A stretch of DNA of 64,000 bases from a virus. The notes beneath the pieces are model-generated. The model worked only from the letters and a program-made list of their open reading frames with translations, had not been told where the DNA came from and made no database searches. Position numbers and translations under genes: made by a program. Positions 154 through 34,454 of this stretch are shown here, piece after piece. Numbering within the stretch: the first letter of the stretch is position 1; each line of letters opens with the position of its first letter. Location of the stretch: the IMG/VR virus record IMGVR_UViG_3300021958_000038. One strand, 5' to 3'.

Positions 154-1196
154 GTGTCTGGGTCAATCTCTACATCTAGTAATGGTTTATGACCTATTGA
201 ATAGTATGTCTTAACAAACTCTTTAAAATCTGTTTCTTCTAAAACTGGTTTCCAAAACGCTTCAGTTAGAGTATCTTTTTCTCTTACTTTTGGTTCAACA
301 ATTTCACCAGTTTCTCTATCGACTCTAGCATACCAGCCAACATTTGGTTTTACTACATAACCACCTGCCATGGCAACATCGAGCATTCCGCCATATTCTG
401 AAATACCACCTTCCCATGTAACTGATACTGGAATCTTAGATTTTTCTTTTACAAACCTAGATTTCTCAACATTAATCACAAAGTTATAGCCTTTAATTTC
501 GCCTGACTTTTTCTGTTGTTGTCTTCCAATAATCCAAATATTATCAGCTGAGTAATAGATGCCTGTTCCGCCTGAAACAATTGCTTTAGGGAATAAGCCA
601 ATCTCTTGATAAGTATGATTAACAGCAAGTAAAGGGATATTCTTCATAGTTAAATAAGGAGTGACCATTCTGAATAGTCCCTTTAATGCTTTTGCTCTTG
701 ACATATCTGCAACTGATTTTTCATTCTTAGCATCTTCAAGTTCTTTCTTAGATGCAAGGTTACCAATAGAATCAATAACAATAATAACATTATCTTTTCT
801 GTCGATATTATCTAATTGATTTACGATATCAAATTTGAGTTCTTCAACATCTGTAATTGGTGTGTGTAAAACTCTAGATGTATCAATACCAAATGCTTCA
901 AAATAGGATTGTGGTGAACCAAACTCTGAATCATAGAATAACAATACAGCATCATCATGTTCTTTTAGATAAGCAGCTGCCATCAATAATGCAAATGATG
1001 TTTTAAAATGTTTACTTGGACCAGCAAGAACTGTAAGTCCAGATGATAATCCACCATCAATATCGCCTGATAAAGCAACATTAATCATTGGAACTGGTGT
1101 TGTAACCATATCCTTTTCTGTAAAGAAATGTGAATCTTGTAGAATTTGTGTTTCTTTAATTCTACTATTCTTTTTAAGTTTATCCATTACGCCCAT
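126..1196 (-). CDS. uvsX: RecA-like recombinase UvsX
   Basis: Walker A GPSKHFKT, FYDSEFG, IDSIGNLASKKE and SGGTGIYYSAD motifs of T4 UvsX. Confidence 0.97.
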   Translation of the reverse strand: MGVMDKLKKNSRIKETQILQDSHFFTEKDMVTTPVPMINVALSGDIDGGLSSGLTVLAGPSKHFKTSFALLMAAAYLKEHDDAVLLFYDSEFGSPQSYFEAFGIDTSRVLHTPITDVEELKFDIVNQLDNIDRKDNVIIVIDSIGNLASKKELEDAKNEKSVADMSRAKALKGLFRMVTPYLTMKNIPLLAVNHTYQEIGLFPKAIVSGGTGIYYSADNIWIIGRQQQKKSGEIKGYNFVINVEKSRFVKEKSKIPVSVTWEGGISEYGGMLDVAMAGGYVVKPNVGWYARVDRETGEIVEPKVREKDTLTEAFWKPVLEETDFKEFVKTYYSIGHKPLLDVEIDPDTVQEDQNSV

Positions 1197-1453
1197 TATT
1201 TTCTCCTATTTCTATATGTGCCGGGGTTATTTTGCCTTTCGTACTTACGCCATCTGGCAACGGCCTCTTTTTTCTTTCTTATTCGCTTCTGGTTTGGTTT
1301 TTCATAAAATTCTCTTGCGCGAACTTCTTGAACAATACCTGCTCTTTCACATTGTTTTTTAAATTTTCTTAAAGCAACATCAAATGGCATTGGCTTAGCT
1401 GGCCTTTTGTCTCTTGGATGTCTATTCCGAGGTGTTAAATCTACTTTAGGCAA
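1196..1453 (-). CDS. rpsU: Phage-encoded 30S ribosomal protein bS21
   Basis: [36 protein letters not shown] matches the bS21 signature. Confidence 0.92.
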
Positions 1454-1967
1454 CGAAATCCTCCCCTGGTTCCCAACTGCATCCAGTTAGTCCTCCAGCC
1501 TGAAGTGCCTTTAGTGTTCTCAATACTTCTTGTGCATTTCTGCCAGTATCGAGTGCGTTGACTGACACGTGTTGGATAACACTGTTTTTATCAATGATAA
1601 AGGTTGCTCTATAGCAAACACCTTCTGCTTCATTAACAATACCTAGTGCGTGGCTTAAACCTAAACCACAATCAGCTGCAAGTGGATGCTGAATACTTCC
1701 TATTAGCTCGTTGTCTTTTTTCCAAGCTAATTTACAGAACTCATTATCACCGCTGATTCCGATGACATTTGCATCATCGTTTAATGCATCCATTGCCGCA
1801 ATCTCAGTTGGACAAATGAATGTAAAATCTTTAGGATAGAAATAAACTACAGTCCAATCTTTTTTCAAAGGTTCATAACTGCTACTTACATCTACACTAA
1901 TGAATTCGTTATCTTTTGAAATACCCTGTAAATTGAATTCAGGGAATTTATTTCCTACAGTTAACAT
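1446..1967 (-). CDS. ahpC: Peroxiredoxin (AhpC/Prx1 type)
   Basis: [15 protein letters not shown] peroxidatic Cys motif, RATFIID, GRN.QEVLR, C-terminal Cys in GLTGCSW. Confidence 0.93.
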
Positions 1968-1990: not shown

Positions 1991-2019
1991 ATTATACCAT
2001 ACTTTAACCATTTTGTACA
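1991..2019 (-). promoter_or_regulatory. Promoter TGTACA-N17-TATAAT upstream of ahpC
   Basis: tgtaca aaatggttaaagtatgg tataat. Confidence 0.75.
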
Positions 2020-2837
2020 TGGTTAAATTGAATATTTTGCTCTTTTTCTCTTTCGTCCCTATCATATTGTGACCTATATTCATTATTAATCTCAATCGCT
2101 TTAGCCAAAAGAGTTAGTTTATCGCTAAACTTAGAAAATGCTAAAGTGTCTTTAGGGAAACATGCTCCGCCATAACCTTGTTTTCCATCGTATCCTGGAA
2201 CCTTGGTATGCGAAATACTTACTCTATCGTCAGCACCTACGGCTTTAATAATTTTATTAAAGTTTACATCGCCGTATTGATTACATGCATCGTATAGCTG
2301 ATTAAAGAATGTTACTTTTGTAGATAAGAATGAATTAATAGCATATTTTACAAAACTTGCTTCTGCTTTATTCATTTTATAAACTGGACAAGGTGAACAT
2401 AAACTAAAAGTTTCATAATAGTACTCTAGTTTCTCAGCTTGAGCTTGTAATCCGCCAATAATGTGAAACTCTGGATTTACGAATTGTTCACATGCTGACT
2501 TTTCAGTTAGAAACTCTGGATTATAAAGTACATTTACTTGATTGTATTTATCAATTGTACTTGGTGTAATAGTAGATTTAATTACAATCATACTTGTCAA
2601 TTCTTTTAAATTTTCCATTACACTATCTAAAATAGTTGTATCAATATCACCATCTTCTGCCATAGGTGTTGGTACACAAACAAAAGTTAAATGTGGTTTC
2701 CAATCTACTAACTGTTGTTGGTCAATACCATCATGACCATATTTTGGGTCGAGTATTTTTTTCTCTACTGTGGGATTACTAAATCCATAATCAACAGCTT
2801 TTCCTACAAAGCCGTGTCCAATAATTGCGATTCTCAT
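2004..2837 (-). CDS. UDP-glucose/GDP-mannose 6-dehydrogenase family protein (short form)
   Basis: GHGFVG Rossmann motif, CVPTP, IKST, NPEFL, K..N helix and catalytic GYGGACFPKD; only 277 aa. Confidence 0.9.
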   Translation of the reverse strand: MRIAIIGHGFVGKAVDYGFSNPTVEKKILDPKYGHDGIDQQQLVDWKPHLTFVCVPTPMAEDGDIDTTILDSVMENLKELTSMIVIKSTITPSTIDKYNQVNVLYNPEFLTEKSACEQFVNPEFHIIGGLQAQAEKLEYYYETFSLCSPCPVYKMNKAEASFVKYAINSFLSTKVTFFNQLYDACNQYGDVNFNKIIKAVGADDRVSISHTKVPGYDGKQGYGGACFPKDTLAFSKFSDKLTLLAKAIEINNEYRSQYDRDEREKEQNIQFNHVQNG

Positions 2838-3619
2838 TTTTCCTCCATAATAAAATGTTTAGGTTTCCAACCAAGTTCCATGAGCTCTTTTGGATTAGCA
2901 CATGTATCTTGTCTTTCCCCTGTTACTTCTTTAATTGGTAAATTATTATCTGGCCAAATTTTATCTGCCATTTCTTTTACTGATACTGGTCTACCATTAC
3001 CAACATCAATTGCCTTATGTTTAGCTAATTTATTATAGTTTCTTATACAAAGATGAATTGCACTACAAACATCTTCAACATGTGTCCAATCTCTTGTATG
3101 GTTTGTAAGATATGTAATTTTTGGATTTTTTTCTTCTAGGTTTCTATATAACATATCTGTTCTACTATTTGGCCCATATACTGTGTGAAATCTTAATCCT
3201 AATGAACTATAAGGTGCAATTGCTTCCATAGCTTTTTTACTTGCAGCATAAGGAGATAACCACCATTCATAAATTGATGAAGATGATGCATATACAATTG
3301 GAAGATGATTACGTTCACAAGCATCAAAAATCTTTTTAGATGCGTCAACATTAACTTCCCAGAATTCTTCTGGTATTTCATGCGACCTTCGTACTCCAGC
3401 CATTGCAGCTAAATGAATTACCATATCGTATTTTTTAGCTGATAAATCTTCGTCAAAATCTCTAATGTCTCCCATGTATTCAGTGATGTCATAAGTATCT
3501 TTGTAATTATCTAAAAAGTAATTAGCAATAAATCCTTTACGATATCCTCTTGTACCAGTTAGTAAAATTCTAATTTTATAATTGTTTACTTTATGCATGT
3601 GATAACCTTTTCCTTTCAT
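2834..3619 (-). CDS. NAD-dependent epimerase/dehydratase (extended SDR)
   Basis: LLTG...GFI, HLAAMAGV, YASSSS, SPYAASK (YxxxK), LRFHTVYGP, RDWTHVED. Confidence 0.88.
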   Translation of the reverse strand: MKGKGYHMHKVNNYKIRILLTGTRGYRKGFIANYFLDNYKDTYDITEYMGDIRDFDEDLSAKKYDMVIHLAAMAGVRRSHEIPEEFWEVNVDASKKIFDACERNHLPIVYASSSSIYEWWLSPYAASKKAMEAIAPYSSLGLRFHTVYGPNSRTDMLYRNLEEKNPKITYLTNHTRDWTHVEDVCSAIHLCIRNYNKLAKHKAIDVGNGRPVSVKEMADKIWPDNNLPIKEVTGERQDTCANPKELMELGWKPKHFIMEEK

Positions 3620-4842
3620 AGAAACGCCTCCAAACTATTTTCATCTCTTTTATAATCTACTTTCCTAGCTAAATTATTTTGAAATAAATATGATGTTTCA
3701 ATTAAATCTCTTTTATTTTCCAATACTGCTTTAACTTCTGTTGCCATATCCTTTGCTGTATTAAATGGTACATTTTGACAGATATGATTATAATTTTTCA
3801 TTGGGTCAATAACTTCTAAGCTATCTGGTAATCCCATAATAGCTTTTGCTTCAGCTATATTTAGATACCTATCTTCAGTTGGATGAGCTACTACTTTTGG
3901 TAAATGTACAACAAATGCTCCAATATAATTCACTGGAATAATTGTACCTCTCAACATGATGTTTCCACCTGCTTCTAATTTTGCATGTTTACGTCTAGCT
4001 TTAGCTGCTTCTCTTTCAAACTCTGGGAATTGGTCCATCCACTCAGCAATTGTTCCATGTTTAATTCCCATTTTCATTAACCTAGACTCAATAGTAACTG
4101 ATTTTTCTTCATGAGCTACAGATGCAGAATATTCAGCATGAGTCATTCCACCTTGTACAACTTCTAGCATATATTTGTAATATGGGTCATCTTGACTTGG
4201 TATCTTTTTATTTAATACTTCAGTTTGAAAATTACTTTTTACATTTAAAAGTAACTCTTGAATAGTTGGTCTTTCTTTATCAAAGTAATTTAATACTGGA
4301 ATCCTATCTTGGAAATGTTCTTTATCCCAGAAAAAGAAAAATGTTCTTTTACGATATTGTGGATTGCCATGATTTAAACTTTTAGTAAGATAAATGGAGA
4401 AGTTGTACCCATTTTCTTGGCCAAGATGGTACAACTTCTCTCTCATGAATGCACCAATTTTTCCAGCCAGACCTGGTGCATTCTCTCCCCACAGTACTTT
4501 TGGTCTGACGTGTTTCAAAACATACTCAGATGATTTTTCCATCCATTGATTATTTTCGTTTTGCTCTCCGTGCGAATTGTGATAAGTACTTAAACCTGCA
4601 CATGGACATACAGATGAAACAACGTCCACCTTTTTAGTTTTGTGAAGTGGATTTGTAAATCCCTCTTCATCGAGAACATAATATGGAACATCAACATTAT
4701 TATCTTTATAGTGTTTAATGAGATGTTCTTCATTACCCATAAACCCAGAATATGTCATTAGATATTCTGGTGTTTTTCCATAAGCTTCATCTGAAGCTAA
4801 AATTTCTCCACCAATTAGTGGAACTATACCTGCATGTTTCAT
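3616..4842 (-). CDS. C5-cytosine DNA methyltransferase-like protein
   Basis: Motif IV CPCAGLS, motif VI ENAPG, motif VIII QYRKRTF, motif IX HPTEDRYL and motif X QNVP; motif I atypical (IVPLIGG). Confidence 0.82.
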   Translation of the reverse strand: MKHAGIVPLIGGEILASDEAYGKTPEYLMTYSGFMGNEEHLIKHYKDNNVDVPYYVLDEEGFTNPLHKTKKVDVVSSVCPCAGLSTYHNSHGEQNENNQWMEKSSEYVLKHVRPKVLWGENAPGLAGKIGAFMREKLYHLGQENGYNFSIYLTKSLNHGNPQYRKRTFFFFWDKEHFQDRIPVLNYFDKERPTIQELLLNVKSNFQTEVLNKKIPSQDDPYYKYMLEVVQGGMTHAEYSASVAHEEKSVTIESRLMKMGIKHGTIAEWMDQFPEFEREAAKARRKHAKLEAGGNIMLRGTIIPVNYIGAFVVHLPKVVAHPTEDRYLNIAEAKAIMGLPDSLEVIDPMKNYNHICQNVPFNTAKDMATEVKAVLENKRDLIETSYLFQNNLARKVDYKRDENSLEAFL

Positions 4843-5672
4843 CCGAAAAACTCCTCCAAAGAATTAGATTCCTTTGCTTTAATTGCATCTTTATAAGCTT
4901 TTGACCATTGAATATGACAAGTAATTCGTTCCTCGCCTTTCCATGGACCATTAGCTAGTGTTTTTGTTTTTAGTGAAACATAGTCTGGGTACATTTCAGC
5001 AAGTTTTCTGTGTACCTCATTACTTAGTTCAACTGTTCTATATTCTGAACATCCGCCTTTTGCATTTGTAGCAGAAATAGAAACTCTATATCTTGTTGTA
5101 ATTCTATTTGCAAAGCCTTGTGTTAACAACTGTAAGTTTGCATGGAAATCTTGCGATGTAGGTAATTTATCCCACACAATATTTCTTGGTAAATTTTTAG
5201 AATCAAAATAAGAATTAGTCATAATCCTTACATTGTTCTGATGTGGCCAATATTTTAAATCTGGTACAACCCAAGATGTTGAGAATCCGCCATGATAAAT
5301 TTGCTCTTCGTCCATCCATTTATTAAATGTATTGAAAGCATCATCAAACTCTTCTCCTGTCATATCCCTAGTTTCCCATTTGGTATCTAGGTGCTCTGGT
5401 GCTGGGCCTTTGTATTTAAAGTACTCCATGTCATCGTCGAGTACCATGTGCCTAGTGCCATAAAATTCATCCCAAATCCATTGTCTAGTAGGTGATAAAC
5501 CTTTTACTGACTCTGGTAATGGTAATACTTTATCGCCATAGATGTCTCTCATTTCGTCAACCTCATGCGGTTGAACAGTAAATTTTACTTTTTCTTTCCA
5601 CTTATCAGGTAGATTATTATAAGTTTTTTGCTTATGGATTCTACCTAATGTAGGGATTATTAAATGTTCCAT
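4839..5672 (-). CDS. hmC-DNA glycosyltransferase-like protein (T2/T6 beta-glucosyl-HMC alpha-glucosyltransferase / TAGT-type GT-A)
   Basis: IPTLGR, TRQWI, MVLDDD (DxD), QDFHANLQLLTQG and AKGGCSEYR parallel the T2/T6 enzyme as recalled; adjacent to gp42 homolog. Confidence 0.75.
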   Translation of the reverse strand: MEHLIIPTLGRIHKQKTYNNLPDKWKEKVKFTVQPHEVDEMRDIYGDKVLPLPESVKGLSPTRQWIWDEFYGTRHMVLDDDMEYFKYKGPAPEHLDTKWETRDMTGEEFDDAFNTFNKWMDEEQIYHGGFSTSWVVPDLKYWPHQNNVRIMTNSYFDSKNLPRNIVWDKLPTSQDFHANLQLLTQGFANRITTRYRVSISATNAKGGCSEYRTVELSNEVHRKLAEMYPDYVSLKTKTLANGPWKGEERITCHIQWSKAYKDAIKAKESNSLEEFFG

Positions 5673-5968
5673 TATGCTCCTGATATAGTTCTGGCTAAAT
5701 TATTAATTAAAAACATTAATCCTACGCCATTTAATAGAATTAGTGCTCTATCTTTCCAAATAAAGGAAACAATTGTCCATAAAAATATACCGACAATCGA
5801 TAGATATAAATCGTAAATTTGCATACCTTCAACTCCTCGAATTGACATTGCAAATAAAACGAATGCAGATGCAATCCATTTTAAATACCAGTCAATTGTA
5901 TACTTGGGTGTTGCTGATTTGTAAATTCGTTTTGAATTTTTTAGCTCTTCTTTAGTGTATTCGCTCAT
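5672..5968 (-). CDS. Small membrane protein (about 3 TM helices), DUF6552-like
   Basis: Hydrophobic segments WYLKWIASAFVLFAM, LYLSIVGIFLWTIVSF, LILLNGVGLMFL; start moved to MSEY, which has an upstream GAGG. Confidence 0.6.
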   Translation of the reverse strand: MSEYTKEELKNSKRIYKSATPKYTIDWYLKWIASAFVLFAMSIRGVEGMQIYDLYLSIVGIFLWTIVSFIWKDRALILLNGVGLMFLINNLARTISGA

Positions 5969-6395
5969 AACTGATGTCTGCCTCACTTAATAATTCAATT
6001 GTTGTTTCGTTATGTTCTTTCCAAATATTTGGTACATCGTCTCCACATTCGTAAACTACTCTTTTGACTCCGACTTGAATTAATCCTTTTGCACATTCGC
6101 TACAAACCGGAAGCCCTGAAATATATATAGTAGCTCCTTGTAATGAAACTCCGTTAAATGTTGCATTGTAAATACAATTCATTTCTGCATGTACAACATA
6201 CTTATACTTTTCGTTTCTGTCATTATACCGATGGTCGCTATCTGCAATGCCTCTTGGAAATCCATTATAACCTTGAGCTAATACTTGTCCTTTTTCTCCG
6301 ATAGCAACTGCTCCAATTTGTTTACTTGGGTCCTTTGACCAAGAAGCAATTTCTTTAGCTAAACCAATATATCTTTTATCCCATTTATTTGACAA
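5952..6395 (-). CDS. cd: dCMP deaminase family protein
   Basis: GYNGFPRG, HAEMN and PVCSECAK zinc motifs; likely TTG start at 6395 with GAGG upstream. Confidence 0.9.
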   Translation of the reverse strand: MSNKWDKRYIGLAKEIASWSKDPSKQIGAVAIGEKGQVLAQGYNGFPRGIADSDHRYNDRNEKYKYVVHAEMNCIYNATFNGVSLQGATIYISGLPVCSECAKGLIQVGVKRVVYECGDDVPNIWKEHNETTIELLSEADISYERIH

Positions 6396-7095
6396 GGTTA
6401 AAGTGCCTCTCATACACATGTAAGTTTTGTACCTGCCAGTAAATATCACCAGCTTTTATAACATCGCCACTAAATGCTGAACCAGTTAATTTATTTAAAT
6501 CGTTTACCATTGTATCTCTAACATGTTTCTGCCATGCAAAGTCATTACGATAACCAAAGATAACATCGTTACTACGCATTTGAATAACGCAATCTAGGAA
6601 ACCATCACGAATATAATATGTTACAGCATTAGTACAAATGAAATCGTTTTTACCATTTTCTTTGTACTCAACCCAAATGCTTGGACGGTTGTAAACCATA
6701 CATGCTCTGCGAGAGTCTGGGTTTTTAATTAATTCGTCAAGTGCATTTTCATATTGTTCAAAGTATTTTTCACCATAGATTAGTAATCCATAATTAGAAT
6801 TGATTTCCCCATGTTTGTTTGCTGTATATAGCCATGCTTGCGGTGGTTCCATATCGTTACCTACAGCATCTACACCTCTGTTAATATCATAAATGTTTGT
6901 TGACTCAGAATCATACCATTCAATTTCTTGTTGAATATATATTTTGTTTGGAGTACCAAAGATAGCATCTTCATCTGCAATAAATGAAGCACCAATAAGT
7001 TCAATTGTCTTTTGACCTGTTTTATCAATAGTAAAATTTTCGTTACCTAGCTCATTTATAAAATGAGTTCTAATATCACTAACTGTCTGATGCAT
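6385..7095 (-). CDS. gp42: dCMP hydroxymethylase (T4 gp42-like, thymidylate synthase fold)
   Basis: DKTG.KTIELIGASF, EINSNYG, NPDSRR, DFICTN (catalytic Cys), MRSNDVIFGYRNDFAW (Asp = dCMP specificity), LHVYERHF; start at MHQTV. Confidence 0.9.
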   Translation of the reverse strand: MHQTVSDIRTHFINELGNENFTIDKTGQKTIELIGASFIADEDAIFGTPNKIYIQQEIEWYDSESTNIYDINRGVDAVGNDMEPPQAWLYTANKHGEINSNYGLLIYGEKYFEQYENALDELIKNPDSRRACMVYNRPSIWVEYKENGKNDFICTNAVTYYIRDGFLDCVIQMRSNDVIFGYRNDFAWQKHVRDTMVNDLNKLTGSAFSGDVIKAGDIYWQVQNLHVYERHFNLVK

Positions 7096-7420
7096 TTTTG
7101 CTCCTGTTGAAAATATCGTTGTTTGGATTCTGGCCTGAAATACCACCTCTGCAGTAAGCTACAAAGAATGATGAATAATTAATTAAATCTTTAGCTGAGT
7201 CTTCGAGTGATTCGAAGTTTGGTTGATAGTTATCAGATTGCATAGCTTCCATAACAGATAGCATTCTTAGCATTTTGGCATGCATAATGTCATGAATGGT
7301 TGTTACACCATTAGGATAATAGTCTGCTTGACTTATCTTGGAATTGGGATTCTGATAATCGTTGGATTTTTTAGTTTGTAATTCTGCGCATTCTTGCAGG
7401 ACTTTTAAAGATTCTTTCAT
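7079..7420 (-). CDS. Nucleotide-modification-associated domain protein (Nmad1/DUF1599-like, all-alpha NTP-PPase fold)
   Basis: KKSNDY, KMLRM and ESLEDSAKDLINYS pattern; translationally coupled to gp42. Confidence 0.6.
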   Translation of the reverse strand: MKESLKVLQECAELQTKKSNDYQNPNSKISQADYYPNGVTTIHDIMHAKMLRMLSVMEAMQSDNYQPNFESLEDSAKDLINYSSFFVAYCRGGISGQNPNNDIFNRSKNASDS

Positions 7421-7442: not shown

Positions 7443-7471
7443 ATTATACCATAAACTCACGCAAATGTACA
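7443..7471 (-). promoter_or_regulatory. Promoter TGTACA-N17-TATAAT upstream of the modification cluster
   Basis: tgtaca tttgcgtgagtttatgg tataat. Confidence 0.75.
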
Positions 7472-8175: not shown

Positions 8176-8688
8176 CTATTTGTAAAATATATGTTCATCA
8201 ATTTGAGTCACATATTCAAGTTGGTCTGCCCAATAAGGCAGAATGTAATCTGCATGATACCATAAGGCACCTTCAGTAATATCTTTATACTTTCCCGTCA
8301 ATGCTAAATCTGCAATATAAAGCGATTTAATCCAAGTCTTAGAATCAACCGGTTCATCAGATTTTCCATCACAATACCAACTAAATTGACACTGATTTCT
8401 AATTGGAACTTCATTGCCTTTCCAATTTGTGTATGTTTTAGCTTGATAAATTACACCGCATACTGTATTTGGGAACTGTAAATCTTCCATTCTATTTATA
8501 ACAACATGTGCTACAGCTAATTTACCAGCAAATGATTGATTTGCTGATTCAAAATAAATATTTTGTGCCATACAATATCTATCATAAGTTTCTTCTTCCT
8601 CACTTGCAAATACATGAGGTACACTTAAAATTGCTACAACCAATGCTGCAATCCATAGTGAAATTTTTCCATAATCCGGACTATTCAT
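8176..8688 (-). CDS. Cell wall hydrolase (SleB/Hydrolase_2 family) with N-terminal signal/TM segment
   Basis: CMAQNIYFES, AVAHVVINR, FPNTVCGVIYQ, CQFSWYCDGKSD, GALWYHADY, HIFY. Confidence 0.88.
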   Translation of the reverse strand: MNSPDYGKISLWIAALVVAILSVPHVFASEEEETYDRYCMAQNIYFESANQSFAGKLAVAHVVINRMEDLQFPNTVCGVIYQAKTYTNWKGNEVPIRNQCQFSWYCDGKSDEPVDSKTWIKSLYIADLALTGKYKDITEGALWYHADYILPYWADQLEYVTQIDEHIFYK

Positions 8689-9541
8689 CTAACTTCTCCT
8701 TAATATAATCTTTTAGTGAAACTTTAGCCGACCAACCTAGGTCTTTTAATTTTTCATTTTTAACATCAGCATCTAAACGATTTGCTGAATTACCTTGAAC
8801 CATTTTAGGTTTACAACCTAGCATTTCTACTACGTCTAAAATAGAATAACTTTGATTCGATGCTATACCATACTCATCACCTATACCTTCCATACCAGCA
8901 ATTATTAATCCGTTGACTGTATCATCAATATGAGTAAAGTTTCTCAGCTGAGTTCCTGGTTCTGTAACTGGTAATTCAGTGGCTCCATTTTTTACCATAC
9001 TTAAATATTTTGCAATTACTGTAGAATAATCGCCTTCTGAAATTTCACCATCACCATAAACATTGTAAAAGTATACAATTGAATATTCTAAATAGAACCA
9101 ATTAGAATAAGATTTTAAAAATTCTGTATTTTGCCATTTTGTATATGCGTATGGACTCATTGTATATCCTGGAACATCTCCTTTACTAAATTTAGTTGAA
9201 GAGCCAGAATAAATAAACTTTGCTTGTTGATGTTTTGCAAATTCAACTACAGCTGGAAATGACATATAATTAGATTGAATTACTTTTTGATAATCATCAA
9301 ATGATTTTTCTACTCTTGCATATTCTCCTAAATGCCAAATATAATTAAATTTTTCTTTATTATGTTGCCATATAGAAAATAAATCAAATGCATCACCATA
9401 ATAGTACTTTGCACCTTTATGTTGTTTTTTACCTGTAGAATGATTATCCAAGACTGTAACATCTTCGCCAGCTTTAACTAATTTTTCTACCAAATGTGAA
9501 CCAATAAATCCACAGCCACCAGTTACTAAATGTCTAGCCAT
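8681..9541 (-). CDS. NAD-dependent epimerase/dehydratase (extended SDR)
   Basis: LVTGGCGFIGSHL, SPYAYTK, FYNVYG, RNFTHIDD. Confidence 0.92.
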   Translation of the reverse strand: MARHLVTGGCGFIGSHLVEKLVKAGEDVTVLDNHSTGKKQHKGAKYYYGDAFDLFSIWQHNKEKFNYIWHLGEYARVEKSFDDYQKVIQSNYMSFPAVVEFAKHQQAKFIYSGSSTKFSKGDVPGYTMSPYAYTKWQNTEFLKSYSNWFYLEYSIVYFYNVYGDGEISEGDYSTVIAKYLSMVKNGATELPVTEPGTQLRNFTHIDDTVNGLIIAGMEGIGDEYGIASNQSYSILDVVEMLGCKPKMVQGNSANRLDADVKNEKLKDLGWSAKVSLKDYIKEKLDE

Positions 9542-10458
9542 TATATATTATTCCTAAAAACGAATTCAATTGCTCTTTCAGCTTCTCGACCAATATCTCT
9601 TTTTGAATACCAGTTGCCAGTATCATTATCCAAATCTCTACAAAGATATTCGATTTCTTTTGATGTAATAGGATAACCCTTGGACATTGCATTACCTGCA
9701 GTTGACACCATAATCTGATACATTTTACTATACCAGCCAGTTCCATTAATTGCTTTATATTCTTCAACTTGTTTTTTGTTTACAAAAGGACAGTCCAAAT
9801 ATCCGGTCCAAGAATAGTTAGTGTTGTTAAGTTGTCCTTTTCTGTGTTCGATGAGTCCTTTTTTAATTGCATCTGGTAACTTATCGAAAAATGATTCATT
9901 TGGTACAACGTATCTGTGCTTTTCCATGAGTGCCATTGGTTCCATAATTTTTCCATCATGGGAGAATATGAAATTGAAAGCCCCGTCGTATTGACTTGGT
10001 ACGTAGTACATTCTGGATAAATCTTTTGTTTGTGCATCTGCGATATCTCCTATCTCTTTATTTAATGCATACCAAAAATGTTTAATGTTATCTGCTGGGA
10101 TTGCTTCAGTTAGTGGAAATACTAAACGAAACTTTGGTTTTTCTTTGGTTGATGATGCTGTTGAATAGCAAACATATCGATATTGAGAATATTTCTTTTC
10201 GATATCTTTTACATCACCTTCATAATCATCAATATCAAGAATGCCGAAACCACCCCAGCCGGTTACATTGGAATTTGCTCGAGTGGTCTCGGTCTTATAA
10301 ATTGCTGGACTGATTAAGGGAGCATCTTTTTTCTTAAGATACTTTTTCTGTTCCGCTAAACGATATAAAACTTGCTCAAACTCATCGAATGAATTGTAAT
10401 CCATTCGCTTTTCTGTTTTATTATCGTATATGTTATCAAATATTGTTAAGCTTACCAT
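9541..10458 (-). CDS. Archaeo-eukaryotic-type primase/PrimPol-like protein
   Basis: PLISPA, LDIDD (DxD), YSTASS..KPKFRLVFPL, D.QTKDLSRMYYVP, helical PriCT-like C-terminus. Confidence 0.7.
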   Translation of the reverse strand: MVSLTIFDNIYDNKTEKRMDYNSFDEFEQVLYRLAEQKKYLKKKDAPLISPAIYKTETTRANSNVTGWGGFGILDIDDYEGDVKDIEKKYSQYRYVCYSTASSTKEKPKFRLVFPLTEAIPADNIKHFWYALNKEIGDIADAQTKDLSRMYYVPSQYDGAFNFIFSHDGKIMEPMALMEKHRYVVPNESFFDKLPDAIKKGLIEHRKGQLNNTNYSWTGYLDCPFVNKKQVEEYKAINGTGWYSKMYQIMVSTAGNAMSKGYPITSKEIEYLCRDLDNDTGNWYSKRDIGREAERAIEFVFRNNI

Positions 10459-10858
10459 GATTACCGCTGTGGTCTGGACCCTCCCAGTCCGCTGGTTTAA
10501 TTAAATCTGGCAATCCAAGTGGATTTGGCCTTGATTCTTTTACACCTACTTCTTTTGCAAGATTTGCTTTGAGTACTTCGTCCCATGCTTTGTATGGGTC
10601 AACGCCAAATGCATCGAGTGTACCAATAGCAACAACACATAAATCAATTAATCCATCGACAATTTCTTCTGCATCTTTATTTGTTAATGCTGCTTCAGTC
10701 TCCATTAGTTCTTCTCGTAAGAATCTAACTCTGAACTGTAGATATTCTCTTAGATTATCTTTATTATCTTTATTTTTATGCATCCACATCTTTACGCCAT
10801 ATTTGTATTGCATATCTGATATGTCTTTTACCCAATTGTTACTCATTATAGTCTCCAT
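10436..10858 (-). CDS. MazG/PRA-PH-like NTP pyrophosphohydrolase
   Basis: FLREELMET, EIVDGLIDL, AWDEVLKANLAK, DLIKP.DW..PD. Confidence 0.8.
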   Translation of the reverse strand: METIMSNNWVKDISDMQYKYGVKMWMHKNKDNKDNLREYLQFRVRFLREELMETEAALTNKDAEEIVDGLIDLCVVAIGTLDAFGVDPYKAWDEVLKANLAKEVGVKESRPNPLGLPDLIKPADWEGPDHSGNHGKLNNI

Positions 10859-11796: not shown

Positions 11797-11825
11797 ATTA
11801 TACCATACTTTTTATTAAATGTACA
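11797..11825 (-). promoter_or_regulatory. Promoter TGTACA-N17-TATAAT downstream of gp43
   Basis: Exact 6-17-6 spacing, TGG extended -10. Confidence 0.75.
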
Positions 11826-11829
11826 GTGC

Positions 11830-14352
11830 TTATCCAAAGAAATCCTCCAATGTAGATATTTCTTCAGGTGACCACCCTACAGCATCCAATACTGGCTGAA
11901 TTGGGTCCAAGAATGTTTTTTGGAATTGCAATTCAAAGTCAATATATTTGTGTAAACCAAATTCGTCTGGTAAGTAATCTGGAAATGCGATTACATTTTC
12001 ATGTATACGATTTGGCGTTTTCAAATAGACGAATTTAATCTTTTCGCCGTTTTTGATTTTTGTGTATTTTTTATTTAATGAAAGGTCATCAACTTGGCTG
12101 TTGTATAATAATGAGCCTCTGACATGAATTGGTGTACCTTTTTTGTAAATAGTTGTGTTGCCTTTGTATTCTCTAACTTTGGATACGCCACGAGGGAATG
12201 CAATTTCATGTGGCTGTAATGTTGTAAAGTAATTTTTAAAATGGTCAATAGCTTGTTGTGTTTGGCTTTCGTTACCACTCATAATAACTTTAAAGATTTC
12301 TTTAAGAGCATCACGACATGGCTCAGGTGTTGACGATTTAATAGCTTCAATACCCATAATCTTAAGTTTAGGTTCAGCATAACGAACACCTTCGTTATCG
12401 TGGACATTTAGAATATATCGCTTTTTAGCTGTCCACAATCCTTTGTCTGCAATAGCTTCTCGTTTCATAACCATACGATTATCAATACCGCCAAACATTC
12501 CAAAGAGTACATCATATGAATTTTCGAGTACTGGCTCTAGATTTTGTGCACAAACTTTATCAAGAAAGTCAATAGGATTTGGTGGATTAATTGCTTTTAC
12601 TAAATCATCTAGGCATACATACAATGAATCTGTGTCGATGGCAAGTACATAATCTTTCCATGATTTTCCTTTTCGCAATGTTTTATTGAGGTGGGCGTTG
12701 ATTGCATATTCGGCCCATCGAATGGTGAGCTGTCCTGTAAGGGTAATTGCTTCTGCGATTCTCTGGTCAAAGAATCTAAAATATTTATTCCCCATAGCAC
12801 CATAGAGAGAATTAAGAAGAATTTTAATTGCCATCTGTCTATTTTCGGCCAGTGAAATTTCCCTTTCAATCGAGTAAAGTTCTTGTTTATCATTTTTATC
12901 TACCTTTTGTAATTTTTTTTGAGCATTAATCATTTCGCTTTTAATGCCAACCCTTTCGTTATACATATCGTCAATAATCGCTGGAAGAATACCTTGCCTT
13001 TCTGTTCTGAAGTATTGTCCATTTGCGGCTAGGGCTTTGCCTTTATTGTCGATGTTTTGTGATTTGGTGAGGACAGCTTCGATATCGACTTTAGTAACTT
13101 CTCCATCTGCAATAGTTTCAGGTGACATATTGTATTGCATAATGATAGAAGGATATAGTGAGTTGAGGTCGAAGCTGACCACATTGTCATGAATACCAAC
13201 TAATGGGTCTTTTACGAAACCACCAGGATAGTTAGTTTTTGTTTTATCTTCTGAGAATGGAACAACCATTTTATTATCTGTCAACTTACGATAAATGATT
13301 GTGTCCCATATAGCAGTTGTACCAAAAGTATCAGAATAGTTTACACCTGCTTTATATGCGATTGTCATTGCAAGAGTAATAAGACCCATCTTATCTTCTA
13401 GTCTATCAACCAACTCAACGTCTTTGATATTATAGTCAATAAACTTTTGAAAATCGTTTTTATATAAACTATAAATTGAACCATATTCTTCGTATGACAA
13501 TTTCTTTTCGCCAAGTACGACATTTGCAATATGGTCGAGTTTGTAAGATTCTTGAGCACCGTATGAGTAACCAAACTTAATGAATAACTCTAGGTAATCC
13601 ATATTAGATATACCTTTTAATTCATAGGCAACTTGTGTTCTGCCTTGTTTAGTAATTTCTCTACGTTCAATCATTCCCCAGGGACTTAGTCGCTTAGAGA
13701 ATTGTTCGCCAAGAAGTTTTAGAATTCTGTTGTGTAAATATGGAATATCAAAGAATCTTGTATTCCAACCAGTAATAACATCTGGTGAATGTGTTGTTGA
13801 ATCCCAATGACCAATAAAATCGATTAACAAACTAGATTCTTGTTCGAATTTTTTATAGACCACACGGTGGGTTTTCATAATAGTATTTTCAACATTATAA
13901 TCACCGAGTCCCCAGACGTAGTAAGTATTATCGATATTGTTTTTGATAGTAATAGCTGTAATGACATTATCTGCTCTATCTGGTTCTGGGAATCCGTCGT
14001 CTGATGCGACCTCGATGTCGATTGTTGTTACGTTAATTAGATTACGATTAAATTCAATCTGTCCAGGGAATTCATCGTTAATAAAAGTAGAAATATAACG
14101 AGTGTTTCCAAAGATATCTCTACCAGCTACATCTTTGTTTTGGCCAATCCAATCTTTGGCTTCTCGCATGGATTCAAATCTGACTTCTCCGACTGGAGTT
14201 CCGTCAAGTGCTTTCCATGATGTTGGACGGTTTGTTGAAACATACAGTTTCGGACCGTATTTGATTTTTTGTGTTACACGTTTTCCATTTTCGTAACCAC
14301 GATATAATAGCATATTGCCATATCGGGATACGTTTGTGTAGAATTTCATCAT
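11830..14352 (-). CDS. gp43: DNA polymerase family B (gp43)
   Basis: Exo DIEV, GWN..FFDIPY, YNIKDV; polymerase [28 protein letters not shown]; C-terminal clamp motif TLEDFFG. Confidence 0.99.
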
Positions 14353-14377: not shown

Positions 14378-14406
14378 ATTATACCATACTATCATAGGTT
14401 TGTACA
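14378..14406 (-). promoter_or_regulatory. Promoter TGTACA-N17-TATAAT upstream of gp43
   Basis: aaaaaaacactgtaca...atggtataat. Confidence 0.78.
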
Positions 14407-20430: not shown

Positions 20431-20438
20431 TATTTATA
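20431..20438 (-). promoter_or_regulatory. Late promoter TATAAATA overlapping gp45 stop
   Basis: Exact TATAAATA. Confidence 0.6.
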
Positions 20439-21108
20439 CATTGTATGTTGATGATTTCTCTAAAGCGATAAAATATTCTACTGGATAATCATTGTTTGTC
20501 CAATTAGAGATTAGTTTAGATGAAATACTTACGAAATAATCACCAGGTAATAGTTTGAGATTTGGCATATTTACAACGAAATTAAAATCGTTTTTACATG
20601 CATTATCTCTATCTAGTGTTAGTTCAAATGTATTAGATGTTGCATCTTTTTCATCAAATACTTTAGCAGTGATAACTCCGCTTTCACCGACTAGAGCTAA
20701 GTCAGTATGACCTAGAACTGAGCTGGCTTGTTTGAGAGCTTTAAGGTTATCATCTGTAAGTGTGATTCCAACTTCAGCATCAGGCATTGTAATATCCTTA
20801 GATGGTTGAGTTAGAATATCAATTTCAGAGAAGTAATATTGAATCCTTTTACTTTCATCGTTCTTAATGGTAACAGATTTATCACTAAATTCTAGTTGTG
20901 CATCTTCAATAAGACCATACACTGATAAGAATTCGTTTAAATCATAGATTCCAAACTCTTGTGCAAAATCTTCAACAATATCAGATGAAGCCAAAATGGT
21001 TTTAGCTTCAGAAATTGTTTTCAGTTTCTGACCAGGTTTAATTACCAAATTAGGATTAATGGCCGCAAAGTTTTTCAATACGTTAATTGTATCATTACTT
21101 AAATTCAT
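20434..21108 (-). CDS. gp45: Sliding clamp gp45
   Basis: MNLSNDTINVLKNFAAINPNL, FGIYDLNEFL, YFIALE. Confidence 0.97.
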   Translation of the reverse strand: MNLSNDTINVLKNFAAINPNLVIKPGQKLKTISEAKTILASSDIVEDFAQEFGIYDLNEFLSVYGLIEDAQLEFSDKSVTIKNDESKRIQYYFSEIDILTQPSKDITMPDAEVGITLTDDNLKALKQASSVLGHTDLALVGESGVITAKVFDEKDATSNTFELTLDRDNACKNDFNFVVNMPNLKLLPGDYFVSISSKLISNWTNNDYPVEYFIALEKSSTYNV

Positions 21109-28889: not shown

Positions 28890-28918
28890 ATTATACCATA
28901 ACTTAAGGGTTTTGTACA
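28890..28918 (-). promoter_or_regulatory. Promoter TGTACA-N17-TATAAT upstream of gp55
   Basis: tgtaca aaacccttaagttatgg tataat. Confidence 0.75.
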
Positions 28919-33332: not shown

Positions 33333-34454
33333 TTATTTATTAAATTTAGTTATAGCTTGTGTGTATCTAGCCATTGGGTCTGATAAATCGATATCGATTG
33401 AATCTTCTCCAATAACACTAGCTACTTCATCAGCTGTTTCATTAACTTCTTTAGTGAAGTATGATTCTTTAACAGTTTTAACTTTCATTTCGAAAGATTC
33501 TCTGTTATCAAATTCAATATCTTCTACTAATGATGCTAATTTTTCAGCTTCAGTTTCAGCAAGCCCTGATGATTGTTCTCTTACTACTTCGTTCTTTTCA
33601 AATTCTTGAACTGATTGATGTAGTTTAATATTATCATCTGTGGATTTATTGAGTTGCTCCTCTAGCTCAGTAACTTGTTCTGATAAATCATCAACAAGGT
33701 CAACTTTACCTTCTGGAACTTCAATATAATGTTCTTTGAACACTGTTTGTAAAGAAGTCATGAATTCTTCAGCAATTTCGGTTCTTAAACCATTAGTTAC
33801 TGCGACTTCATTTTCCTTCATCCAATTTTCAACTACATAGTTAAGATATGAATCTACCTTCTCTACTAAGTTTGATTGAATTTCAGATACCTCTTCTTCT
33901 AGGTTTTTTGCATACTCTGCATCAAGATTTTCGATGTGTTGTGAAAGTTTAGATGTTAACACAGCTTCAAAAATAGCTCCTGCTTTTCCTTTGAATTCAT
34001 CGGAAAGAGTTGCTTCTTCTGAAATTAGTGCATCTAAATCTTCGTCAAAGTCAGTTGATTCAACCTTTGCTTTAGCACCAGGTGCTACAGCTTTAGGCGC
34101 TTTTTTAATAGCGTTTCCTACTGAACCGTCATCTTCTGACTCATCCATTTTCGTCATCTTGGAGAAGAGTTTTTGCGCGTCTTCTTTTCTAGCTTTCTTT
34201 AGGATTTCGACTGCAGCTTGGATAACACCGGCTTTAGTTTTAGGAACGGCAATAGCTTCGGCTTTAGACTCATGTTCTTCTTCTTCGTCTTCTTCCTCTT
34301 CTTCGTGTCCGTCTTCTTCTACTTCTTCCTTTTTCTTATCCTCTTCTAGAGATTCCTCGTCTAAATTCTCATCTTCAACGAGCTCTTCCTCTTGAAGCTC
34401 TTCAGCCACATCCTCTTCGACTAGATTTTCGTTTTTTACATCTTCGAGTGACAT
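33333..34454 (-). CDS. gp22: Prohead core scaffold gp22
   Basis: Acidic N-terminus, IFEAVL, VDSYLNYVVENW, GLRTEIAEEF, IEVPEGKVD. Confidence 0.92.
   Translation of the reverse strand: MSLEDVKNENLVEEDVAEELQEEELVEDENLDEESLEEDKKKEEVEEDGHEEEEEDEEEEHESKAEAIAVPKTKAGVIQAAVEILKKARKEDAQKLFSKMTKMDESEDDGSVGNAIKKAPKAVAPGAKAKVESTDFDEDLDALISEEATLSDEFKGKAGAIFEAVLTSKLSQHIENLDAEYAKNLEEEVSEIQSNLVEKVDSYLNYVVENWMKENEVAVTNGLRTEIAEEFMTSLQTVFKEHYIEVPEGKVDLVDDLSEQVTELEEQLNKSTDDNIKLHQSVQEFEKNEVVREQSSGLAETEAEKLASLVEDIEFDNRESFEMKVKTVKESYFTKEVNETADEVASVIGEDSIDIDLSDPMARYTQAITKFNK

Follow-up and report, generated by a model that had tools for sequence, protein, structure and literature searches.

Sugar-decorated 5-hydroxymethylcytosine (hmC) is a textbook phage defense against restriction enzymes and CRISPR. 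To our knowledge, only neutral sugars, namely glucose, gentiobiose, arabinose and galactose, have so far been shown on cytosine derivatives. The systems closest to the one described here are the glucosyl-hmC pathway of the T-even phages (gp42, cd, gp56 and the alpha- and beta-glucosyltransferases, alpha-GT and beta-GT, in T4; the TAGT-family product of ggt in T2/T6) and the RB69/DLP3 gene clusters. In RB69 and many T4-like phages, arabinose is carried on 5-hydroxycytosine (5hoC), a base that comes from a flavin-using thymidylate synthase (TS) homologue with a dCMP-type Asp (PMC13326640, 2026). In this study, we examined a 64-kb stretch (hereafter called the window) of IMG/VR virus record IMGVR_UViG_3300021958_000038, an 88.8-kb contig from an uncultured marine T4-like phage that is 49% complete. 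We describe an eight-gene operon whose predicted products include a T4-type dCMP hydroxymethylase (gp42), a TAGT-family DNA glycosyltransferase (GT), a protein with the fold of cytosine-C5 methyltransferases (C5-MTases), called MTl here, a truncated short-chain dehydrogenase/reductase (SDR1), and a two-domain protein resembling UDP-glucose dehydrogenase (UGDH), called UGDHs here. The best explanation of the whole, to which we give a probability of about 0.5, is that this operon hypermodifies cytosine co-replicatively and that the donated sugar is a uronic acid.

The identity of the modified base depends on gp42, which matches the T4 dCMP hydroxymethylase structures over its full length (E = 2.5e-68), with Cys148, Asp179 and Glu60 aligned. 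Its FICTN and YRNDFAWQ segments align with FMCTN and FRNDYAWQ of T4 and contain the catalytic Cys and, at the position of E. coli N177, the dCMP-type Asp. The RSND, ND and D-F-x-C motifs are kept in this protein and in all 34 homologues from related loci; D-F-I-C in this gp42 puts an acidic residue at the L143 equivalent, three residues ahead of the catalytic Cys, and Asp is found at the equivalent of E. coli D169. A dCMP-type Asp alone is not decisive, as the 5-hydroxy-dCMP synthases of many T4-like phages have been mis-annotated; these enzymes are set apart from 5-hydroxymethyl-dCMP synthases by having Asn, not Asp, at the position of E. coli D169, and every 5-hydroxy-dCMP synthase tested has this Asn (PMC13326640). 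Since the RSND Asp, the ND motif and the acidic residue are all kept here, the published criteria predict hmC rather than 5hoC, and the assignment of this TS homologue as a T4-type dCMP hydroxymethylase, not an RB69-type 5hoC synthase, is well supported. An earlier note on this DNA had called the protein gp42-like with the dCMP-type Asp in its RND motif, and the full set of residues bears this out. The same note took RB69-like arabinose as a precedent for sugar on hmC, a view that is outdated as the arabinose sits on 5hoC (PMC13326640).

The GT was placed by the earlier note in the T2/T6-type hmC glycosyltransferase family, and two lines of evidence agree with this placement. The protein scores 53.4 bits against PF20691, for which the cut-off is 27.5 (it also matches phrog_842 with E = 4.8e-38), and it shows about 24% identity over 90% of the query to the T2-type ggt product by tblastn; ggt likewise adjoins gene 42. 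The DxD motif lies in LDDD (residues 78-81), which is kept in 17 of the 21 GT sequences, with D79 and D80 at least 95% conserved. No PDB sequence matched the GT even at E <= 1. A search for alpha-GT, which did recover an AGT-like gene in a contig used as positive control, gave no match in this record (49% complete) or in two relatives with 70-76% completeness, and a search for beta-GT in the record was also negative. As neither enzyme was found, the acceptor of the GT is probably bare hmC, not glucosyl-hmC as in T2/T6.

A distant TAGT-like branch (315-321 residues, 23-26% identical) is present at four of the related loci (L103:7074-8039, L118:1820-2770, L119:2927-3883 and L104:4394-5341). Its members have neither a clamp tail of the kind described below nor a DDD-type match at the DxD site, and gp42 is not visible at these loci. 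The gene lies directly before an SDR gene and a short UGDH gene except in L104, where a primase and other genes lie between. These proteins may be glycosyltransferases that transfer the same sugar to another acceptor.

The C-terminal tail of the T4 and RB69 DNA polymerases binds the gp45 sliding clamp. Among the open reading frames (ORFs) of at least 60 codons in the window, only three end in [ST]LEx[FL][FL], and these encode the polymerase, the GT and MTl (tails in Table 1). Across 1843 ORFs from related loci, the strict motif ends 43 of 45 polymerases, 28 of 30 MTl proteins, 19 of 29 TAGT proteins and three singletons, two of which were identified as an MTl fragment and a methyltransferase of phage C48C1. 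A looser pattern covers 44 of 45 polymerases, 25 of 29 TAGT proteins, all six AGT-like GTs, four of the five members of the c61 family and the C48C1 methyltransferase. In the same survey the tail was absent from both sugar enzymes, the SDR and UGDHs. Because the tail is common only to the polymerase, the GT and MTl in the window, the latter two probably ride the sliding clamp and work on nascent DNA there. The T4 alpha-GT has been found to bind gp45 (PMC13216743). We also predicted a complex between gp45 and the last 53 residues of the GT (225-277), which scored 0.56 when the best of three controls scored 0.00; contacts agreed by at least 85% between runs and the partner pLDDT was at least 43. 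Of 80 solved complexes, 58 reach the mark applied to such predictions, as do 2 of 110 mismatches; with a score of 0.60 or lower, it is reached by only 7 of those 80 and by both of the passing mismatches. This prediction gives weak support for docking, and similar solved complexes might explain the score.

Two further observations concern such tails. In phage C48C1 (L026, OQ984149.1, record positions 33480-34364), the annotated 294-residue DNA methyltransferase ends in STLDAFFG, and clamp tails on DNA-modifying enzymes thus seem general in this lineage. A family of 338-388 residues without a Pfam match (L088:12244-13365, L094:11447-12610 and L111:7975-8991) ends in the clamp-type sequence QLD[AE]FMV and adjoins gp42 and a short UGDH; it may be another DNA-modifying enzyme.

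The sugar genes are linked to the GT by their position. UGDHs follows the GT in all 23 GT-centered loci that reach far enough, and the association of GT, SDR and UGDHs is kept across the gene orders TAGT-MTl-SDR-UGDHs, TAGT-SDR-UGDHs-MTl and TAGT-SDR-UGDHs. It is also kept in one clade in which a PF11440 alpha-GT-like enzyme, likewise tailed, takes the TAGT slot. After dereplication, an SDR gene is adjacent in 13 of 13 loci with a clamp-tailed GT as compared with 9 of 23 loci without one (Fisher p = 2e-4, phylogeny uncorrected); the full count extends to both GT families, TAGT and T4 alpha-GT-like, which are unrelated to each other.

What the SDR contributes can be read most easily from its full-length relatives. 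The full-length SDRs adjacent to GT genes match 5u4q (1e-79 and 2.5e-71) and 6zl6 (2e-52 and 7.5e-40) far ahead of GalE (1e-26 or weaker), and by these matches they are clearly assignable as UDP-glucuronate 4-epimerases. For SDR1 itself, the top three distinct PDB proteins are 5u4q (7.8e-14), which we take to be the Klebsiella UDP-galacturonate epimerase, MoeE5 (1e-12) and 6zl6 (1.4e-7). SDR1 keeps the S-Y-K triad (YAASK) and a carboxylate grip at Ser113-115 (ASSSSIY), which reads [ST]-S-[SC] in its relatives. In the published account of UDP-glucuronate epimerases, this grip is T126-S127-S128 in BcUGAepi, and the catalytic Glu of the decarboxylases is missing at position 128 (PMC7984243). SDR1 and its relatives have Ser or Cys at the position of that Glu. 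As the epimerase grip is kept and the decarboxylase Glu is absent, xylose or another pentose is disfavored. Of the three supplies that had been proposed for this operon, UDP-glucuronate, UDP-galacturonate and UDP-xylose, the first two are therefore favored by the 4-epimerase clade of SDR1, and the third is not. A uronic acid would be our best single guess for the donor sugar, with the chances evenly balanced.

We propose the following pathway: gp42 would convert dCMP to 5-hydroxymethyl-dCMP; the dCMP deaminase of the operon would supply dTMP synthesis, and a nearby MazG-like enzyme may clear dCTP; the polymerase would then make hmC DNA, presumably with cytosine fully replaced; the GT would dock on the gp45 clamp via its polymerase-type C-terminal tail and move a sugar from a nucleoside diphosphate (NDP)-sugar straight to the hydroxymethyl group of hmC; UGDHs would oxidize UDP-glucose to UDP-glucuronate and SDR1 would turn this into UDP-galacturonate; and the clamp-tailed MTl would act on the same nascent DNA. 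The part of this scheme that comprises hmC and clamp-coupled glycosylation is, in our view, very likely to be correct.

All eight ORFs were confirmed on the minus strand between positions 7420 and 2004, in a region with 31-38% G+C; neighboring genes overlap by 1-4 nt at four junctions and by more at three. The motif TGTACA-N17-(TG)GTATAAT, which heads the operon, occurs 14 times in the window as compared with 1.23 expected copies, and none of 100 shuffles reached 14. Twelve of the 14 copies are minus-strand sites that precede early or middle genes; the copies include those at 125-153, 1991-2019, 7443-7471, 11797-11825, 14378-14406 and 28890-28918. This motif is a distinct promoter class of this phage. 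Since the copies at 7471-7443 and 2019-1991 flank the eight genes, we infer that these genes form one unit between consecutive promoters. Thus, an operon of overlapping genes headed by one promoter at 7443, as had been suggested before, agrees with both the gene layout and the enrichment of the motif, the next copy of which appears only past the last gene. A terminator-like hairpin at 7167-7146 was considered and rejected as a terminator, as it falls within a coding region and shuffled sequences contain such sites at least as often. A DNA search with the whole operon against 50,697 phage records recovered none that bears the operon, the only matches being short ones to gp42 and one to UGDH.

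Table 1. Features of the modification operon and of associated genes and sites, in window coordinates
Feature	Coordinates	Strand	Remarks
p113, 113-residue helical protein	7079..7420	-	Matches to phrog_18404 and phrog_1485; possibly DUF1599/Nmad1-like
T4-type dCMP hydroxymethylase, gp42 orthologue	6385..7146	-	PDB 1b49, E 2.5e-68; probable start ATG 7095
dCMP deaminase, T4 cd analogue	5952..6449	-	PF00383, E 8.5e-20; phrog_174, E 3.3e-46
DUF6552 small membrane protein	5672..5986	-	PF20189, E 2.5e-17; three predicted transmembrane helices
DNA glycosyltransferase (GT), TAGT (T2/T6 ggt) family	4839..5672	-	PF20691; DxD; C-terminal tail NSLEEFFG
C5-cytosine-MTase-fold protein (MTl)	3616..4842	-	PF00145, E 4.4e-17; tail NSLEAFL
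Truncated SDR (SDR1), UDP-glucuronate 4-epimerase derivative	2834..3619	-	261 residues; PF01370, E 5e-24
Two-domain UGDH-like dehydrogenase (UGDHs)	2004..2837	-	277 residues; PF03721, PF00984
Promoter-like site, early or middle, heading the operon	7443..7471	-	TGTACA-N17-(TG)GTATAAT; followed by GGAG Shine-Dalgarno and ATG at 7420
Next copy of the promoter motif	1991..2019	-	Starts the AhpC-S21-uvsX unit; marks the end of the operon
Second NDP-sugar SDR (SDR2), by primase	8681..9541	-	286 residues; clade separate from SDR1; possibly sugar supply
MazG/PRA-PH-like pyrophosphatase, candidate dCTPase (gp56 analogue)	10436..10858	-	PF01503, E 1.9e-10; putative role
DNA polymerase gp43	11830..14352	-	C-terminus STLEDFFG, the reference clamp-binding tail
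Sliding clamp gp45, presumed docking partner of the GT and MTl tails	20434..21108	-	phrog_223, E 1.2e-70

The uronic-acid part of our reading has to be weighed against a number of observations. The first of these concern UGDHs. Its motifs GHGFVG, GGACFPKD and NPEFLTE are recognizable, the residues C226, K164, N168, D230, E108 and E112 are invariant in 45 sequences, and the structural model (pLDDT 94.4) shows confident UGDH N-terminal and central domains. However, the protein ends about 50 residues past the catalytic Cys and lacks the C-terminal domain (PF03720) to which UDP is bound in every solved UGDH, and it scores 133.9 bits against NCBIfam TIGR03026, below the cut-off of 189.8. Its fold covers about half of the UGDH targets (target-normalized TM-score 0.44-0.56), and its short length is conserved in relatives. 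Such relatives are encoded in IMG/VR by more than 524 stretches; as a rule the gene lies immediately upstream of uvsX, of which it is a near-universal neighbor in this lineage. In approximately 100 related loci, UGDHs often stands alone after the primase, with no gp42, GT or SDR nearby; elsewhere, it occurs with phosphomannomutase-like and cytidylyltransferase-like genes, or with an epimerase and no hmC genes. The complete genomes of C48C1 and G003 carry UGDHs without TAGT or AGT. In the cultured phage C48C1, the order primase-SDR-UGDHs-uvsX is present, gp42 and TAGT went undetected, and a literature search for this phage returned nothing. As UGDHs occurs in genomes without gp42, TAGT or AGT, it is not a dedicated part of an hmC pathway; it belongs to the backbone genes of the lineage and has a role that does not depend on hmC, and we rejected it as a dedicated hmC-pathway gene on this lineage-wide distribution. 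Hence, of the earlier assignment as a UDP-glucose dehydrogenase of the operon, the catalytic residues and the first two domains stand, but the UDP-binding domain and the dedicated role do not. The frequent pairing of UGDHs with canonical UDP-glucuronate epimerases suggests that it may still make UDP-glucuronate.

SDR1 is a further point of doubt. It has an RGYRK insertion in its Gly loop, and relative to its 314-320-residue relatives it has lost beta2, which bears the NAD-binding Asp, and about 55 further residues; parts of the UDP-binding domain are gone as well. Because of this insertion and these losses, the activity of SDR1 is uncertain. Its designation as an SDR epimerase is accordingly sound with respect to 4-epimerase ancestry, triad and grip but not with respect to intact NAD- and UDP-binding regions. 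In addition, the pair of UDP-glucuronate epimerase and UGDHs is also found without hmC genes, and must therefore have some other use there. Lastly, the donor specificity of a GT of this kind is not readable from its sequence, and the TAGT of T2/T6 uses UDP-glucose (PMC13216743).

Taken together, these points define the strongest competing explanation, which we regard as unlikely on balance: the DNA would carry plain glucosyl-hmC or bare hmC, the TAGT would use host UDP-glucose, and UGDHs and the SDRs would be backbone genes with other uses, such as virion fiber glycosylation, changes to the host envelope, or the draining of host UDP-glucose. The order primase-SDR-UGDHs-uvsX looks ancestral, with the hmC module inserted into it, and enzymes of virion glycosylation encoded in the same genome could use the sugars; both points fit this explanation, as does the distribution of UGDHs among hundreds of related contigs. 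However, four observations speak for a link between the SDR and the GT: the SDR gene lies directly beside the GT gene in every dereplicated locus with a clamp-tailed GT; this link outlasts several rearrangements and the exchange of one GT family for another; in the SDR tree, SDR1 belongs to a fast-evolving short-form clade that is found in p113/gp42 contexts, with the exception of one row from a truncated contig; and all the genes concerned lie in one early operon between two promoters, whereas the virion glycosylation genes are late and tens of kb away.

Many related loci (L053-L106; for example, L078:7825-8595 and L084:6061-6633) have a PF03332 phosphomannomutase-like gene and a PF01467 cytidylyltransferase-like gene directly before the short UGDH gene, and the two look like a self-contained NDP-sugar supply line. 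Neither a cytidylyltransferase-like nor a phosphomannomutase-like gene was found in the 88.8-kb record, which is 49% complete.

MTl raises the question of which reaction it performs on this DNA. It scores 62.9 bits against PF00145 (cut-off 22), with the match beginning only at residue 37, and 39 bits against TIGR00675, below the cut-off of 100.65. By Foldseek its fold resembles that of M.HhaI (target-normalized TM-score 0.69, E about 5e-11; model pLDDT 78). Motifs IV (Pro-Cys in VCPCAGLS), VI (ENA in WGENAP) and VIII (QxRxR in PQYRKRTFFFFW) are invariant. The AdoMet (S-adenosylmethionine) loop of motif I, FxGxG, is replaced by IVPLIGGE, which is invariant in 15 sequences that are 39-89% identical; motif I thus appears altered under selection, not degraded. 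The earlier label of C5-MTase-like protein consequently fits the fold, the PF00145 match, Pro-Cys and QxRxR, but not a canonical motif I. The near neighbors of MTl by structure and sequence include the natural C5-carboxymethyltransferase 8yf3, and in every related locus with visible context MTl is accompanied by gp42 and a clamp-tailed GT. C5 methylation is impossible if cytosine is fully replaced. Distant homologues of MTl occur in cyanophage S-TIM5 (gp080, L123), near a thymidylate synthase gene; in a Pseudoalteromonas phage; and in the gp301-gp310 region of Bacillus phage G (L124), five genes from an alpha-glucosyltransferase and near a glucose-1-phosphate thymidylyltransferase and an HAD phosphatase.

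As the AdoMet loop is invariably altered and MTl is in the constant company of a DNA glycosyltransferase, MTl might be non-methylating: a covalent attack at C6 would start new chemistry on hmC or sugar-hmC, or introduce a non-methyl group in the manner of the natural C5-carboxymethyltransferases, and remodeling of the DNA-bound sugar would fall to the two sugar enzymes with their deficient nucleotide-handle binding. We consider this a long shot. If true, it would mean an undescribed kind of cytosine adduct, made co-replicatively in abundant marine phages.

Lower still in probability is a scheme in which the GT places glucose on hmC, and UGDHs and SDR1 then oxidize and epimerize the DNA-bound sugar. 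It would account for the fact that parts for binding the nucleotide handle are missing from both UGDHs and SDR1 while their catalytic residues are strongly conserved, for the basic character of the loop insertion gained by SDR1, and for the occurrence of short-form SDRs in gp42 contexts, with the exception noted above. On the other hand, the same truncated UGDHs is found in phages without a DNA GT and beside full-length canonical UDP-glucuronate epimerases, which points to a soluble UDP-sugar substrate, and neither sugar enzyme is clamp-tailed. We know of no precedent for the editing of a sugar on DNA.

A pentose, either xylose or arabinose, made from UDP-glucuronate by a decarboxylating SDR seems highly improbable, even though UDP-xylose is usually made by a UGDH together with an extended SDR, and pentoses are found on cytosine derivatives in the phages RB69, DLP3 and Thanatos (PMC13326640, PMC12838424). 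We rejected this route for SDR1 because of the Ser found in place of the decarboxylase Glu, a position at which its relatives have Ser or Cys (PMC7984243); moreover, 4-epimerases are the nearest solved relatives of these SDRs, with a lead of 20-50 orders of magnitude in E-value. SDR2 does match UDP-glucuronate decarboxylases (at about 1e-14; its best PDB match is 6pmh at 6e-25), but it is restricted to the closest relatives of this phage. The known pentose systems also use 5hoC made by D169N TS homologues, and this gp42 keeps the Asp. Least probable of all is that the starting base itself is 5hoC as in RB69, with the sugar ether-linked to C5: TS homologues with the dCMP-type Asp can indeed be 5-hydroxy-dCMP synthases, many of them mis-annotated, but those tested have Asn where this protein and all 34 relatives have Asp at the D169 equivalent (PMC13326640), and we rejected the RB69-type pathway on this residue, the full-length match to T4 gp42 also arguing against it.

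The remaining genes of the operon are those for p113, the dCMP deaminase and a small membrane protein. The p113 gene always precedes gp42 in related loci, and the triad of p113, gp42 and dCMP deaminase is conserved. For p113 there were no Pfam hits, PF07659 included, even at E <= 10; among its Atlas language-model neighbors, 48% of one cluster carry DUF1599 (PF07659). The proposal that p113 is Nmad1-like thus draws on the language-model neighbors, and the Pfam search did not bear it out. The deaminase, in contrast, is as the earlier note described it, with Pfam and PHROG matches (Table 1) and zinc motifs of the HAE and PCxxC types in its translation (HAEMNC and PVCSEC). So is the membrane protein, which is now assigned to DUF6552 and has three predicted transmembrane segments. 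Its Atlas neighbors are all viral DUF6552 proteins; it shows a very weak match to SemiSWEET_2 (16 bits, cut-off 80), and its gene occupies the slot that imm has beside gene 42 in T4.

Two loci, L084:6494-7273 (in a complete 157-kb genome) and L073:3022-5111, contain a divergent 259-residue TS homologue with a catalytic Cys, RSCD and HND, and thus of the dCMP type. It is followed by genes for an asparagine-synthase-like amidotransferase, a dCMP deaminase and a short UGDH, without TAGT or AGT. These loci may encode a different route of cytosine modification. In the present record, the minus strand also carries genes for UvsX, ribosomal protein S21, AhpC, primase, polymerase, clamp loader and clamp; those for S21 and the AhpC/TSA peroxiredoxin (1196-1967, minus strand) lie between the operon and uvsX.

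If our reading is correct, the DNA would have a chemistry of a new kind, with an acidic sugar on each cytosine that adds negative charge in the major groove, and this would affect packaging, recognition by nucleases and Cas proteins, and the sequencing of marine viromes. The presence of polymerase-type tails on two unrelated GT families and on MTl suggests that the coupling of DNA modification to the replisome is routine in this lineage. At the same time, UGDHs, as a truncated backbone gene of the lineage, does not by its presence alone predict the sugar, and it illustrates a limit on inference from gene neighborhoods. Our literature searches found no uronic acid on hmC, and, whether for that or for a marine dCMP hydroxymethylase encoded with an epimerase and a glycosyltransferase, nothing relevant beyond SP-15 and RB69.

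Among known systems, the TET-associated ones reportedly combine a C5-MTase and a TET enzyme with a TAGT. As in those, a C5-MTase-fold protein and a TAGT-family GT are encoded side by side in this operon and would act on substituents at cytosine C5. The differences are that no TET dioxygenase was seen among the genes examined, which were those of the operon and of the flanking DNA within 1-23 kb of the window, that hmC is predicted to come from the nucleotide pool via gp42, and that motif I of MTl is non-canonical and its C-terminus bears a clamp tail. Bacillus phage SP-15, which is not T4-like, is said to contain a hypermodified thymine carrying glucuronolactone, in which a uronic acid is part of the DNA modification. 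This phage also encodes a UGDH homologue (a tblastn match to query residues 50-259 only), presumably of the usual full-length kind; its modification is on a uracil derivative rather than on hmC.

The RB69/DLP3 arabinosyl-5hoC and RL38JI hexosyl-5hoC systems are similar in that the plastic region from the polymerase gene to uvsX contains a cluster of a TS homologue, DNA GTs and NDP-sugar genes (PMC13326640), and in the non-glucose sugar, which is a prediction in the present case. They differ in that their base is 5hoC, made by a flavin-using D169N TS homologue, whereas Asp169 here predicts hmC, and their sugar genes (isomerase, HAD phosphatase, nucleotidyltransferase and mutase) are unrelated to UGDH and the UDP-glucuronate epimerase (PMC13326640). 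With the T-even phages, the present phage has in common a gp42 orthologue, a dCMP deaminase and a DNA glycosyltransferase, the latter of the T2/T6 ggt family (PF20691), as well as the position of the locus between gene 42 and uvsX, like bgt of T4 and ggt of T2; binding to gp45 is also a property of the T4 alpha-GT (PMC13216743). The present system differs in that: no alpha-GT was found in the record or in the two more complete relatives, and no beta-GT in the record; the GT carries a polymerase-type tail; the operon adds MTl and two sugar-nucleotide enzymes; and a uronic acid, instead of glucose, is the predicted donor.

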